The position numbers and the translations under genes were made by a program. A DNA stretch of 17,444 bases. Source: a virus. Under the pieces are notes generated by a model. That model saw only the letters and a program-made list of their open reading frames with translations, was not told the DNA's origin and made no database searches. The stretch is taken from IMG/VR virus record IMGVR_UViG_3300021403_000540; one strand, given 5' to 3'. Below are positions 5,735 to 9,961 of this stretch, in pieces (positions within the stretch are counted from its first letter, which is position 1; each line of letters opens with the position of its first letter).

Positions 5735-7168
5735 ATGCCCGAGTTTGCACCAGGCCTACCATCCAAGACGACGTCACATGAGTTGCCTCACGTCGGCGAG
5801 AGGAAGGTCTGGGAACTTACGGTTCATGATCACCACGCTGAGCGCCGCGGCCGACACTTCGATCTTCGTCTTGGAGACCCGAGTACGGGGCAGGCGCATA
5901 GCTGGGCTATGCACGCTTCTTGGCCTCGTCCTGGAGAGAAGACCTGGGCTATACAACAACCGACTCACACGATGAAGTACATGGACTTCATAGGGAAAAT
6001 AGAAGACGGCTATGGCAAGGGTGATGTGAAGATGCACGATCGCACCAAGACCGAAATCATCAATGCTCGCCCCGGGCACATCAGCTTCAACGTCTATCGA
6101 GGCAGCGGCCCCGAGGAATACTCGCTCCACCGGGTGGGCGACAAGCAGTGGATCTTGATGAACCGCACCCTCACTCGCGAACAACATCCACAGCTCCCCA
6201 CCGATAAGCCCGCCTACCGAGAGACCAAAATCTCGGACCCCAAGATTCACTCAGACGACTACGTCTTCTCGGCGAAGATCGACGATGCCCACAACTTGTT
6301 CTATTTTCCGAAGGCAGGAGAGAAGATCAGAGTTCTATCCTACCGACCCTCGAAGCGCAACGGAGGAGGTCTGATTGAACACACGCACAAGGTCCCCGGA
6401 ATCGGAGATGGAGTGCCTACGCCGGATGGACTTGGAGGAACGATCCTTCGAGGAGGCCTGTACGCGATTTCACCAAAAAGTGGAATCGCTACGCCGGCAG
6501 CTCAACTCGCCGGCCTTCTCAACTCCGATGTCTGGAAGAGCCGTCGGAAGCAAGAAGAGCACGGACATCTCGCCTCCGTTCTCTACGACGTCGTCCAGTA
6601 CAAAGGCCACAAGATGGAGGGCGCTCCTTATGAGGAGAAGCTGAAGGTTCTTCGAGAGGTGGAGAAGCGGCTGCCAGATTACTTCCACCTGCCTCGAATG
6701 GCCTTCACTAAAGAGCAGAAGTCGCAGATGGTGGAAGACATGCGAGCGGGAAAACTGCCGGAGACGAAGGAGGGCATCGTCGCTTGGGATCTGAAGACCG
6801 GCTCGCCGCCATACAAAGCCAAGTTCACGATGGACCACGACGTCTACATCCGTGGTTTCTTCCCTGGCGAGGGCAAGTACAAGGACCGTGGTGTGGGCGG
6901 GTTCTTCTATTCCTACGAACCTGGCGGCCCAATCATGGGGCGCGTGGGAACCGGCCTTTCCGACATCCAGCGCTCCCATATGCATACAAATCCAGAGGCT
7001 TACGTCGGAACAGTGGCGCGCGTGAAGGCACAGGAGCGCTTTCCATCTGGAGCTCTTCGAGCTCCTTCGTTCGACGCCTTCCATCTCGACAAAAATGAGC
7101 CGCAGCAGTTGGCGATGCTGAAGCACGCTGCCGCAGAGAAGACTCTCGATTTTCTTTGGGGGTTCTAG
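5735..7168 (+). CDS. Fusion of a LigD-type 3'-phosphoesterase (PE) domain with an ATP-dependent polynucleotide ligase (nucleotidyltransferase) domain.
   Basis: The N-terminus VHDHHAERRGRHFDLRL...AHSWAM matches the LigD PE signature (H-x-H..R..H-x-D-x-R-L-E...SWAVPKGP). The C-terminal half carries ligase motifs in canonical order and spacing: motif I-like SAKIDDAH (K-x-D-D-x-H rather than K-x-D-G-x-R), III-like TILRGGLYAI, IIIa VLYDVVQYKGHKMEGAPYEEKLKVL (close to FDlLyldGedl..pl.eRr..L), IV EGIVAWD, V YKAKF. Its stop overlaps the endolysin stop at a CTAG palindrome. Confidence 0.8.
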   Translation: MPEFAPGLPSKTTSHELPHVGERKVWELTVHDHHAERRGRHFDLRLGDPSTGQAHSWAMHASWPRPGEKTWAIQQPTHTMKYMDFIGKIEDGYGKGDVKMHDRTKTEIINARPGHISFNVYRGSGPEEYSLHRVGDKQWILMNRTLTREQHPQLPTDKPAYRETKISDPKIHSDDYVFSAKIDDAHNLFYFPKAGEKIRVLSYRPSKRNGGGLIEHTHKVPGIGDGVPTPDGLGGTILRGGLYAISPKSGIATPAAQLAGLLNSDVWKSRRKQEEHGHLASVLYDVVQYKGHKMEGAPYEEKLKVLREVEKRLPDYFHLPRMAFTKEQKSQMVEDMRAGKLPETKEGIVAWDLKTGSPPYKAKFTMDHDVYIRGFFPGEGKYKDRGVGGFFYSYEPGGPIMGRVGTGLSDIQRSHMHTNPEAYVGTVARVKAQERFPSGALRAPSFDAFHLDKNEPQQLAMLKHAAAEKTLDFLWGF

Positions 7169-7896
7169 GTGACGAGCGGGGGAGTAACGAGAGTGATCTG
7201 GCGGTCGGCGGTGACGAAGGCGAGAGTCCGTTGAGTCATGACACCGGGATCACCATCCACATCGAGGTCCCAAGCGCGTTGGAAGGCCATGACAGCTTCT
7301 CGGCAGAGCTGACTCGATAGGTTCCCATCGACCTCGCCGCCGTAGAACTTCAGTTGTGCCAGGTAGCTCTGAATCTGGACTGGCGACATGTTGAAGTCGG
7401 TCCCGTACCTCTCCATGATCCGTGCCTCTACGGCGCTTGCCCACGTGACCGGCTTGTTGATGTCGCAGTACTGGAGGTACTTCTGCGGATCGGTTCCGAG
7501 ATAGTTGAAGTGCCACGCCTCAGACTCATCCGGCCCCAAACCATCTCGTCGATGACAGAACCAGTTGTGGGCTTTCATGACCTCGACGATGTCACCGTAG
7601 TGGATCTTATACAGCTTCATGATGCCGTAGAGATCGAGATCGACGGCGAGGCCGTACCCATGTGGGCTGTACCCCGGTCTCTGCACGCCACGTTTCACTC
7701 GCCGTGCAGCGAGAGACGCGTCAGCTGACCGCCACATGTCCGTGTAGACATAGCCGCCGGTCGCTTTGTCGAGCACGAGAAGCTGTGGCCCGACGTCGGG
7801 GGCGAGGTACCGCATGCGGCGCGGCACTTGCCCCTTGTAGTCGGCGTCGTCCGGGCCCTTTATAGTCGCAGGCATCTCAACCAACTTGAGAATCAC
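7165..7896 (-). CDS. Endolysin: peptidase M15 (LAS-type zinc D,D-/L-Ala-D-Glu peptidase) with a C-terminal peptidoglycan-binding domain.
   Basis: YSPHGYGLAVDL matches the S-x-H-x-x-G-x-A-x-D motif, and EAWHFNY supplies the second zinc-ligand His of the VanY/M15 family. The C-terminal GGEVDGNLSSQLCREAVMAFQRAWDLDVDGDPGVMTQRTL has the look of PG_binding_1 (DG..G..T..A...FQ...L..DG). The start is GTG at 7896 with GGAGG 5 nt upstream. Confidence 0.85.
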   Translation of the reverse strand: MILKLVEMPATIKGPDDADYKGQVPRRMRYLAPDVGPQLLVLDKATGGYVYTDMWRSADASLAARRVKRGVQRPGYSPHGYGLAVDLDLYGIMKLYKIHYGDIVEVMKAHNWFCHRRDGLGPDESEAWHFNYLGTDPQKYLQYCDINKPVTWASAVEARIMERYGTDFNMSPVQIQSYLAQLKFYGGEVDGNLSSQLCREAVMAFQRAWDLDVDGDPGVMTQRTLAFVTADRQITLVTPPLVT

Positions 7897-8267
7897 TTCG
7901 GCCTCCGAGCGAGCGTCGGCATCTTGTGCTTCGCCTCTGCTCCGTCATTCACATGGTAACAGGCGGGATCGCCGAGGCAACTCGCCCCTCCAGTCGTACA
8001 GTAGATGGTGTCGATGTCATCGAAGCAGCCTGATGCCCCAGTGCAGTGGGCGCAGGCAAGCCCATCTCTCGTGAAGAGGGCGTCGCAGACATCATTGGCT
8101 GTGACCGTCATGTTCGATGGGCAGAATGGCAGCCCATAGATGTTGACCTTGCCAGCCATATCTCGCGGAGGGGCTGGCACCATGTCAATCACAGGTGGTG
8201 GGGTCGGAATGGGTTGAGGGTGACAGGAGGAGCACGCCACCAGTAGCACAAAGGGAAGCCATCTCAT
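7893..8267 (-). CDS. Cys- and Pro-rich lipoprotein of about 125 aa (o-spanin-like or periplasmic, disulfide-rich).
   Basis: The track ORF 7893..8384 has an implausible N-terminus. The internal ATG at 8267 gives MRWLPFVLLVACSS (signal peptide plus LVAC lipobox), then PQPIPTPPPVIDMVPAPP, then about 10 Cys. It is 2 nt from the protease stop and overlaps the endolysin GTG start (GTGA). Confidence 0.6.
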   Translation of the reverse strand: MRWLPFVLLVACSSCHPQPIPTPPPVIDMVPAPPRDMAGKVNIYGLPFCPSNMTVTANDVCDALFTRDGLACAHCTGASGCFDDIDTIYCTTGGASCLGDPACYHVNDGAEAKHKMPTLARRPK

Positions 8268-8269
8268 GA

Positions 8270-9070: not shown

Positions 9071-9513
9071 AACAGGACCTCCTTGCCGTCCGGGCCCTTG
9101 ATCTTGAACTTCACGGTGGTGTTGCCGAAGTGCTTCTGCTTGTACGCGGATAGTCGACTACTGACCTCACGGCGTGCAGCCAGCATCGTAGGAGATGCCG
9201 AGGGCTTGCCGAAGATCAAGTTTTGGAGCTCAGCTAGGAAGCAGCCCCCATCCTTGACTCCCATCGACTCCGCCTGGGTCTCGATGTTGTCCCATGGAAT
9301 GTTGTTCGGATCGGTGCCTCCGGTAATGAGGCCCATCACGATTGAGGCGAAGTAGGGCAGCGCACCCTCTACTGCACCAGTCGTGCAGTCAACGACATCA
9401 TGGGCGATGATGCAGCCAGGATCATTCGCTTTGGCTTGGTCCGTCCAGCAAGAGCAGCTGGTCAATGTGAGCGATGCAATCGCGATTCCGAGAAGCAATG
9501 CCATAGTCTTCAT
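9067..9513 (-). CDS. Lipoprotein of about 148 aa, a candidate o-spanin partner of the upstream membrane protein.
   Basis: The internal ATG at 9513 is preceded by AGGAGA with a 6-nt spacer. The N-terminus MKTMALLLGIAIASLTLTSCSC is a signal peptide plus LTSC lipobox. The longer track ORF has an R/S/P-rich leader that is not credible. Confidence 0.65.
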   Translation of the reverse strand: MKTMALLLGIAIASLTLTSCSCWTDQAKANDPGCIIAHDVVDCTTGAVEGALPYFASIVMGLITGGTDPNNIPWDNIETQAESMGVKDGGCFLAELQNLIFGKPSASPTMLAARREVSSRLSAYKQKHFGNTTVKFKIKGPDGKEVLL

Positions 9514-9526
9514 CTTGGGTCTCCTA

Positions 9527-9961
9527 TTAGGCAGCTGGCTTGAGGGGCGCGGAGTCAGGAACATTGATACGCTCGAGCTTGAGATCGTGGACCTTCGCTT
9601 CGATCTTGGTGGATAGGTTCTTGTCAGCATCTTCCCAGCCGAGGACCTTCTTCAGCTCTTCGATGCCCTTCTCACCGTAGTGGGACTTCACAGAATCGAT
9701 GGCCGATGTCTTCGCTTCTGCTAAAACTTGGTTCATGTTGTCGCCTGGTTTGAGCGAGCCAATGACACGCTGTTGCGCATCCTTCACCGCATCTTCGCTC
9801 ACTTGATCCAAGCGATCGAGCGCGCCCAGGACCTTCGTGTTTGTCGTCTTACTCTTCAAGTATGTGATCGCGTACCCGATCAGAGCGCACAGGAGCCCTC
9901 CGAGCACCGCCACGAGAGTCGGGAGCAACTGCACTACACCTTGTTCGAGAGCCTGTCTCAT
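9527..9961 (-). CDS. N-terminally membrane-anchored helical protein (i-spanin-like or holin-like).
   Basis: The 144-aa ORF has one hydrophobic helix (LLPTLVAVLGGLLCALIGYAITYL), then a charged and predicted-helical region. GGAGG lies 5 nt upstream of the ATG at 9961. It sits directly upstream of a lipoprotein gene, which is the i-/o-spanin arrangement. Confidence 0.55.
   Translation of the reverse strand: MRQALEQGVVQLLPTLVAVLGGLLCALIGYAITYLKSKTTNTKVLGALDRLDQVSEDAVKDAQQRVIGSLKPGDNMNQVLAEAKTSAIDSVKSHYGEKGIEELKKVLGWEDADKNLSTKIEAKVHDLKLERINVPDSAPLKPAA

Follow-up and report, generated by a model that had tools for sequence, protein, structure and literature searches.

Phages lyse double-membraned bacteria with a holin, then an endolysin and then a spanin, and to our knowledge the only established Gram-negative alternative to the spanin for this last step is disruptin. 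Mycobacteriophages carry an additional lysis-cassette enzyme, LysB, a serine esterase that acts on mycolyl-arabinogalactan and severs the outer layer from the wall. Papain-like cysteine proteases of the C1A family include xylellain of Xylella fastidiosa, which we take to be the protein in Protein Data Bank (PDB) entry 3OIS; xylellain cleaves ordinary cathepsin-type peptide substrates, and part of its N-terminus reportedly blocks the active site. In one preprint, disruptin (gp28 of phage phiKT) is described as a non-spanin agent of outer-membrane disruption in a spanin-less phage, and about 15% of phages are given as having no recognisable spanin (bioRxiv 10.1101/515445). Acquisition of xylellain-type C1A genes by tailed phages and Mimiviridae has already been recorded (PMC10380794). 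Here we describe a five-gene cassette in a 17,444-nucleotide (nt) stretch of viral DNA, IMG/VR record IMGVR_UViG_3300021403_000540 (the window), in which the gene for a predicted xylellain-type C1A protease stands between two lipoprotein genes. On our best reading, an uncultivated large phage uses this cassette as its lysis operon; related contigs (Ga0642624_00045 and Ga0070683_100000015) reach 207–210 kb. A literature search found no study of a papain-like or C1 protease and lipoprotein module in a lysis cassette; the two companion lipoprotein families, their strict, coupled linkage to the protease and their placement in lysis cassettes were not found described and appear to be new.

All coordinates are window positions. 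The interval 7165–9961 is filled by five minus-strand open reading frames (ORFs), which we call A–E, with hardly any non-coding DNA between them. An earlier note on this DNA had reported this five-gene order and its tight spacing, and we recovered all five ORFs, with junctions of −4 to 13 nt. The cassette, its divergent neighbour F and the gap between them are as follows (aa, amino acids).

9527–9961, minus strand: gene A, 144 aa, ATG start with AGGAGG upstream; candidate holin, predicted single-pass membrane protein.
9067–9513, minus strand: gene B, 148 aa, predicted lipoprotein with lipobox L-T-S-C20.
8270–9070, minus strand: gene C, 266 aa, GTG start with AAGGAGG 8 nt upstream; predicted xylellain-type C1A cysteine protease.
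7893–8267, minus strand: gene D, 124 aa, predicted Pro/Cys-rich lipoprotein with lipobox L-V-A-C12.
7165–7896, minus strand: gene E, 243 aa, GTG start with GGAGG upstream; predicted endolysin with an M15B-like domain and PG_binding_1.
10102–10632, plus strand: gene F, 176 aa, a third predicted Cys-rich lipoprotein with lipobox LGGC14, divergent from the cassette.
9962–10101: intergenic region between A and F, the sole gap big enough for a cassette promoter.

Shine-Dalgarno motifs are clear for A, B, C and E and weak for D. A 13-nt spacer separates A from B and a 2-nt spacer C from D, whereas B/C and D/E each overlap by 4 nt (GTGA); E and a convergent LigD_N-ligase gene overlap at their stop codons (CTAG, 7165–7168). 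A simple scan of 6900–10300 found neither a sigma-70-like promoter nor an intrinsic terminator, although the phage may use non-sigma-70 promoters. Judged from their spacing, A–E would be co-transcribed as one operon, which fits the absence of an internal promoter or terminator.

The A-B-C-D-E order recurs on related contigs of 50–210 kb (L004, L005, L093, L178 and L179, identified by protein searches and contig look-ups), with protein identities of 62–88% overall (B, 78%; C, 83%; D, 70–73%; E, 88%); L004 carries two D-type genes in tandem. Because the five-gene order recurs at these identities, we conclude that the cassette genes are real rather than chance ORFs. Among the public gene calls for the same sequence, P0011 starts C at Met68, giving a protein of 199 aa that has lost the catalytic Cys59, and P0127 starts D internally, giving a protein of 88 aa that has lost the lipoprotein signal. 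We prefer the longer starts of C and D because they are conserved in homologues; with both public calls starting late, the database annotation therefore hides both key features.

The earlier note had described C as a papain-like C1 protease with an intact Cys/His/Asn triad, a description that profile searches bear out. C matched Pfam Peptidase_C1 (PF00112) at 59.4 bits against a cut-off of 20.7, with residues 37–242 aligned to positions 1–202 of the 220-position profile, and it matched 70 C1 chains in the PDB at E ≤ 1e-3, the best being 3OIS ('cysteine protease'; E 4.9e-37, residues 15–262 aligned). A further match was to phrog_16701, labelled 'peptidase' (3.6e-12), a family in which PHROGs already lists this protease type from tailed phages. 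The catalytic residues Gln53, Cys59, His204 and Asn228, together with Trp230 of the NSWG motif, are invariant in an alignment of 33 sequences, and the active-site codons, all on the minus strand, were checked in the DNA.

8914–8912, minus strand: Gln53 of C.
8896–8894, minus strand: Cys59 of C.
8461–8459, minus strand: His204 of C.
8389–8387, minus strand: Asn228 of C.

C contains no hydrophobic window that could form an N-terminal segment or signal peptide, in line with what the earlier note had remarked, and has neither an I29 prodomain nor a wall-binding domain. The label 'secreted-type', which had nevertheless been attached to it, has to be given up: by every sequence criterion tested, C is a short, signal-less, prodomain-less C1A peptidase of the xylellain (intracellular) type, with predicted activity. 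A profile check against CHAP and NlpC/P60 had been proposed as a test that could refute the protease reading; neither family appeared at E ≤ 0.1, and C remains a C1 enzyme. An assignment to C39 was likewise rejected, Peptidase_C39_2 reaching only E 0.03 against the 59 bits of the C1 match.

C shares with xylellain and other short bacterial C1A enzymes its length class, the absence of a signal and of an I29 prodomain, the catalytic residues and an N-terminal segment. This segment carries the motif GW.PD.PD.RD, in which all 33 sequences have G16, D23, R25 and D26 and at least 90% have W17 and D20, and residues 15–36 of C align to 3OIS from residue 33 onward. Because these residues are invariant or nearly so and align to the N-terminal region of 3OIS, we propose that C is probably held latent by a segment homologous to the blocking segment of xylellain. 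Two additional cysteines of the phage-type proteases, Cys154 and Cys185, hint weakly at an extra disulfide: 44 sequences have both and 42 have neither, and 27 are discordant (24 sequences with one only), in counts uncorrected for phylogeny.

The two lipoproteins reported on either side of the protease, a 148-aa protein (B) and a Pro/Cys-rich one (D), are likewise found in our analysis, and F makes a third. B, D and F each begin with a basic and hydrophobic N-terminal signal that ends in a lipobox (LTSC20, LVAC12 and LGGC14, respectively) and predicts lipidation. B has five cysteines and 5% Pro, and D has ten cysteines and 15 prolines (12%). Neither protein gave a significant match in Pfam, PHROG or NCBIfam, the best for D being a sub-threshold match to DUF7640 (E 0.0049). 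From these searches, B and D are two new protein families, with B the founding member of what appears to be a new disulfide-rich family. A profile search for B among 1.8 billion proteins recovered 140 representative clusters, and C20 (the lipobox cysteine), C22, C34, C43 and C91 are invariant in 52 aligned members. An AlphaFold2 model of B (predicted local distance difference test score, pLDDT, 84.6) shows a five-helix bundle and a C-terminal hairpin, with a folded part of ~125 residues; a fold search with this model returned no informative structural neighbour. In D, a Pro-rich linker is combined with a Cys-rich domain, and the C-terminal tail is basic; an eight-sequence alignment of its family contains seven invariant cysteines, with the lipobox cysteine present in seven of the eight members; structure prediction for D, from two input sequences, gave an unusable model (pLDDT 41). 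The invariance of five cysteines in B and seven in D suggests that both proteins fold in an oxidising, extracytoplasmic compartment. A chagasin-like inhibitor identity for B or D was rejected, as neither matched Inhibitor_I42 at E ≤ 0.1. F is both Cys-rich and Pro-rich and has no match in Pfam, PHROG or NCBIfam. Its place beside the cassette is kept in L004 and L005, and probably in L093, where a minus-strand gene encodes 169 aa; F is a possible member of this system.

To place the three central genes, we searched all fetched loci with profiles of A–D. The protease gene lies directly downstream of B in all 18 loci with a B gene; in the 15 loci whose sequence reaches far enough, D comes next in 14, L009 being the exception. 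The B stop and the C start overlap by 1–4 nt in eight of ten called loci checked, C/D junctions are equally tight, and the B/C and C/D stop–start overlaps are kept across lineages whose proteases are only 48–57% identical, which therefore argues for a functional unit rather than chance neighbours. Thus, B-C-D is a conserved, translationally coupled three-gene module, and this module, rather than the protease alone, is the relevant unit.

Neither B nor D was found at 72 IMG/VR loci whose proteases are more distant (38–47% identical) or at 80 cellular protease loci across many phyla, and the two families are specific to this protease subclade. In this respect C departs from the xylellain pattern: it belongs to a phage subclade coupled to two lipoprotein genes, an arrangement never seen at the 80 cellular loci. 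B was not found in 185,579 species-representative genomes, and a protease scan of these genomes returned only homologues of ≤48% identity, from many phyla, and none of these had A, B or D nearby. Searches with tblastn gave no match to A or B in 50,697 GenBank phage records. Cellular homologues of the protease are mostly solitary, and their only recurrent neighbour is a gene for a signal-less chagasin (I42) inhibitor, which suggests that a cytoplasmic protease–inhibitor pair is the ancestral state. The I42 gene stood downstream in four of the 68 neighbours scanned (L098–L177) and also in L008 (5001–6104; GCA_029782365.1).

The first gene of the cassette, A, encodes its sole membrane protein, with one hydrophobic helix at about residues 12–34 followed by a helical C-terminal tail. 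A matched four PHROG families, all labelled holin (phrog_13712 at 1.2e-6, and more weakly phrog_36209, phrog_608 and phrog_6918), and reached 15.4 bits with Pfam Holin_LLH, which is below the cut-off of 24.9 (E 0.026); the A-like protein of L007 also matched phrog_13712 and phrog_608. Homologues of A stand upstream of B in L004, L005, L007, L093, L178 and L179. Three lysines lie within 15 residues downstream of the helix, against a single arginine before it, and because this Lys-rich flank follows the helix, A is predicted to be N-out/C-in, with a cytoplasmic tail. Gly and Pro breaks divide the C-terminal domain into four short helices, and its sequence contains no long coiled coils. A had been described as an 'i-spanin or holin-like' protein; the four PHROG matches favour the second half of this description, and the Lys-rich flank and the Gly/Pro-broken tail tip the balance against the first. 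We infer from these matches that A is a holin.

The B family also has a second architecture. Seventy-two of the 140 B-family representatives are 171–330 aa long and carry one to four transmembrane (TM) helices, here called the H part, before a conserved internal lipobox (examples are proteins among P0136–P0268, L089 5001–5684 and L094 4159–5004), and in L009 (3871–4236) the H part is a separate, overlapping ORF upstream of B. Loci have either A or H before B, never both. The predicted layouts of A plus B and of the fused H-B proteins correspond, each running from a short outside N-terminus through a helix, a Lys-rich cytoplasmic stretch and a signal-like helix to a periplasmic B domain. Homology between A and H was rejected, with no detectable similarity (best E 0.037), and the fused proteins have no PHROG family. 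The fused forms and the split ORF of L009 may reflect processing at the internal lipobox, translation from internal starts or a frameshift. Seven of the 75 B-family representatives longer than 170 aa have a short motif in the cytoplasmic loop, G[TS]F[KR]xP, as in DGTFKLPFK.

The last gene, E, had been called an M15 endolysin with a peptidoglycan-binding domain. The binding domain is secure: PG_binding_1 (PF01471) scored 35.5 bits against a cut-off of 23 (1.1e-8, residues 174–224) and is the only significant domain of E. The M15 assignment leans on motifs, S77-x-H79-x-x-G-x-A-x-D86 and E126-x-x-H129, which align to YodJ/LdcB (4ox3) and VanY (5hnm), and on profile scores that are all sub-threshold (VanY, 18.1 against 25, E 0.0024; VanXY and LdcB, weak). 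E also matched the endolysin family phrog_2649 (3.4e-5), and contains no hydrophobic segment and no signal or signal-arrest-release sequence. We therefore describe E as a predicted cytoplasmic endolysin with a putative N-terminal M15B-like (VanY/LdcB-like) zinc peptidase domain. Its closest deposited relative, 39% identical, is at 4995–5693 of L096 (Virus Rctr197k, KX853510.1), a 197-kb virus from a nitrate-dependent methane-oxidising/anammox enrichment; the gene there has no B-C-D beside it and is preceded by a divergently transcribed Cys-rich lipoprotein gene.

With holin matches for A and an endolysin match plus PG_binding_1 for E, the earlier description of the cassette as lysis-type is supported. 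Across loci, the module adjoins an endolysin gene in five of the eight arrangement types with readable flanks, and these endolysins belong to three unrelated types.

M15B plus PG_binding_1 endolysin: adjoining the module in the window, L004, L005, L093 and L178.
Peptidase_M15_3 endolysin: adjoining the module in L007, L009 (phrog_894, 5e-29) and L182.
GH25 endolysin plus an E-like gene: adjoining the module in L095.

Outside these lineages, Alicyclobacillus phage MMB025 has a 753-aa 'endolysin' in which a C1 domain (32% identical), a muramidase-like domain and PG_binding_1 are fused, and in Thermoanaerobacterium phage THSA-485A a C1A peptidase gene directly follows a GH25 endolysin gene. The MMB025 protein has been read, from HHpred only, as a peptidase plus muramidase endolysin (PMC13141910). 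This fusion and the THSA-485A pairing, both from Gram-positive phages, tie this type of protease to lysis independently. A family-wide link between protease and lysis was rejected, being near chance in the 72 IMG/VR loci; the link is limited to the B-C-D subclade and the two Gram-positive phages.

The cassette can now be set beside the described systems. Like lambda Rz/Rz1-type spanins, it has a membrane-anchored helical protein followed by lipoprotein genes in a lysis cassette, D is Pro-rich and contains cysteines, and the proposed role is in the last, outer-membrane step. Unlike an i-spanin, which is N-in/C-out with a long periplasmic coiled coil, A profiles as a holin and is predicted to be C-in. 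An o-spanin is small, Pro-rich and unstructured, and its gene lies next to or inside that of the i-spanin, whereas B is a predicted helical bundle and D lies two genes from A. In addition, an enzyme is encoded between the lipoproteins of the cassette, B domains often have a multi-TM N-terminus fused to them, and the order is holin, module, endolysin. The earlier doubt that these lipoproteins are classical spanins was thus reasonable, given that B is modelled as a folded, Pro-poor bundle. LysB offers a functional analogue, as an extra enzyme beside holin and endolysin for the outer layer, but C is a predicted cysteine protease accompanied by two lipoproteins and shares no sequence with LysB. 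Disruptin resembles the module as a non-spanin solution, and the basic tail at the C-terminus of D recalls it loosely; disruptin differs, however, in being a small cationic peptide without an enzyme or lipoprotein, and the two have no sequence similarity. Finally, CHAP and NlpC/P60 enzymes and the MMB025 fusion are papain-fold cysteine hydrolases in phage lysis as C may be, but C is a separate protein with no wall-binding domain and is C1A by profile.

We consider it a serious possibility, although short of probable, that C is a latent protease that is released through holin lesions and acts with pre-positioned B and D on envelope proteins, replacing spanins. B and D would be exported beforehand and lipid-anchored facing the periplasm; C would pile up in the cytoplasm in a latent state, and E would likewise wait there. 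Holin A would then open the inner membrane and allow C and E to enter the periplasm, a step for which a holin would be required because A is the only membrane protein of the operon and both C and E are without a signal. E would cut peptidoglycan, and C would be captured, positioned or activated by B and D. In a host presumed to have an outer membrane, C might next cleave envelope proteins, which could be outer-membrane stabilisers or tethers, such as the Braun lipoprotein or OmpA-like proteins suggested earlier, or B and D themselves, for example freeing the basic tail of D. Such cleavage would complete the last step of lysis, at the outer membrane, which is the job of spanins in other phages. 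A more specific proposal, which we regard as rather doubtful, is that B-C-D constitutes a third outer-membrane lysis device beside spanins and disruptin, in which pre-laid outer-membrane lipoproteins capture and activate the holin-released latent protease, whose cleavage of tethers or lipoproteins frees the outer membrane; on this view the TM-fused B forms would be variants of this device that are linked to a holin.

Several observations weigh against release of C into the periplasm during lysis. C is of an intracellular type without the papain disulfides, and a cytoplasmic site of action is equally natural for it. No endolysin stands beside the module in L006, L010 or the L089/L094/L180 type, and in L089 the neighbours of the module are tail-fibre and virion genes. 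A wall hydrolase or holin gene lies within two same-strand genes in ~6–8 of 72 viral protease loci, which is near chance, and the holin label of A comes from PHROG matches with E values of 1e-6 to 7e-3 and a sub-threshold Pfam match. The model also leaves unexplained why a signal-less enzyme is translationally coupled to two exported proteins. Some of these points feed an explanation outside lysis, in which C would act in the cytoplasm as a protease for host takeover or counter-defence, and B, D and F would be envelope lipoproteins in their own right, for superinfection exclusion or receptor masking, for example, that merely lie next to the lysis genes. The signal-less, intracellular character of C speaks for it, as do the cellular homologues, which are cytoplasmic and have an I42 inhibitor gene as their only recurrent partner, and the several B-C-D loci without an adjoining endolysin; the third, divergent lipoprotein F suggests a lipoprotein 'island', and the protease occurs as a lone gene without lysis context in phage FLC9 and megaphage LR756511. 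We nevertheless judge this explanation unlikely, given that the B/C and C/D overlaps persist at 48–57% protease identity, that the module recurrently adjoins three endolysin families, and that there was no match in PADLOC (defence-system libraries).

The remaining alternatives keep the cassette within lysis and assign C or its neighbours a different task. C might be a second endolysin, a papain-fold peptidase retargeted to peptidoglycan stem peptides or cross-links, with B and D as accessories; the C1 domain of MMB025 does occupy the usual CHAP/peptidase position of a modular endolysin, next to muramidase-like and PG_binding_1 domains, its published peptidase plus muramidase reading agrees, and THSA-485A pairs a C1A peptidase with a GH25 endolysin. 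C itself, however, is C1A by sequence rather than CHAP or NlpC and has no wall-binding domain, xylellain acts on cathepsin-type peptides, E would already supply a stem-peptide-type (M15) activity, and B and D would be left unexplained, which together make this proposal decidedly unlikely. We find it similarly hard to credit that A and B, or A and D, are a diverged two-component spanin whose lipoproteins are processed by the protease, with the holin encoded elsewhere in the genome. A helical protein with an N-terminal TM segment followed by a lipoprotein does have the separated spanin architecture, D resembles an o-spanin in being a lipoprotein with a Pro-rich linker and cysteines, TM plus charged-helix proteins lie near the module in L010 and the L089/L180 type, and lysis genes of large phages can be scattered; set against this are the matches of A to holin rather than spanin PHROGs, its predicted cytoplasmic C-terminal domain of four short helices with no long coiled coil, the ~125-residue, Pro-poor fold of B, and the fusion of about half of the B family behind one to four TM helices, which is unlike any spanin. 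Finally, C could be a timing regulator that acts in the cytoplasm on the tail of A (or on the H extension) and so sets off or holds back hole formation, with B and D sensing the periplasm. With the predicted N-out/C-in topology, ~105 residues of A would share the compartment of C; B is partnered by either the A gene or the H extension but not by both; and the turnover of T4 RI, a lysis regulator, by a host protease offers a precedent. Such regulation would, however, leave both the conserved downstream D and the MMB025 muramidase fusion unexplained; we consider it very improbable.

The rest of the window contains further features, listed here in order of position.

1175–1786, minus strand: phosphoesterase (phrog_547, 1.9e-45).
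2525–5272, minus strand: 915-aa vault-like protein (Pfam MVP_shoulder, 2.5e-27; a weak Vault_3 repeat).
5275–5697, minus strand: small protein with a weak 2H/CPD phosphoesterase match (phrog_36523).
5735–7168, plus strand: fusion of a LigD 3'-phosphoesterase domain and an ATP-dependent ligase.
11925–12259, minus strand: complete transfer-messenger RNA (tmRNA) gene (Rfam RF00023, 113.7 bits against a gathering threshold of 47; ARAGORN tag peptide ANDNSYNVIADQRAAA*).

The genes at 1175–1786, 5275–5697 and 5735–7168 together make up a set for nucleic-acid end repair. The ORF at 11634–12008 is probably not a gene, because the tmRNA overlaps it. The vault-like protein has no PHROG or PADLOC family; near-full-length homologues with 35% identity occur in the uncultured 462–735-kb megaphages LR756500, LR756501 and LR756503, and a homologue is also present in L005. 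The tmRNA, the vault-like gene and the nucleic-acid repair genes of the window are typical of very large phages, and vault-like proteins in phages look worth a study of their own.

Even if the module has no part in lysis, it would have to be explained why a protease of cytoplasmic type is so strictly paired with two exported lipoproteins. If the proposed role in lysis is correct, a holin-gated envelope protease would be a possible addition to endolysin-based antibacterials. The xylellain-type C1A genes repeatedly acquired by tailed phages and giant viruses would also gain a first biological role, and the enzyme-containing module would be a concrete candidate for filling part of the gap left by phages without a recognisable spanin.

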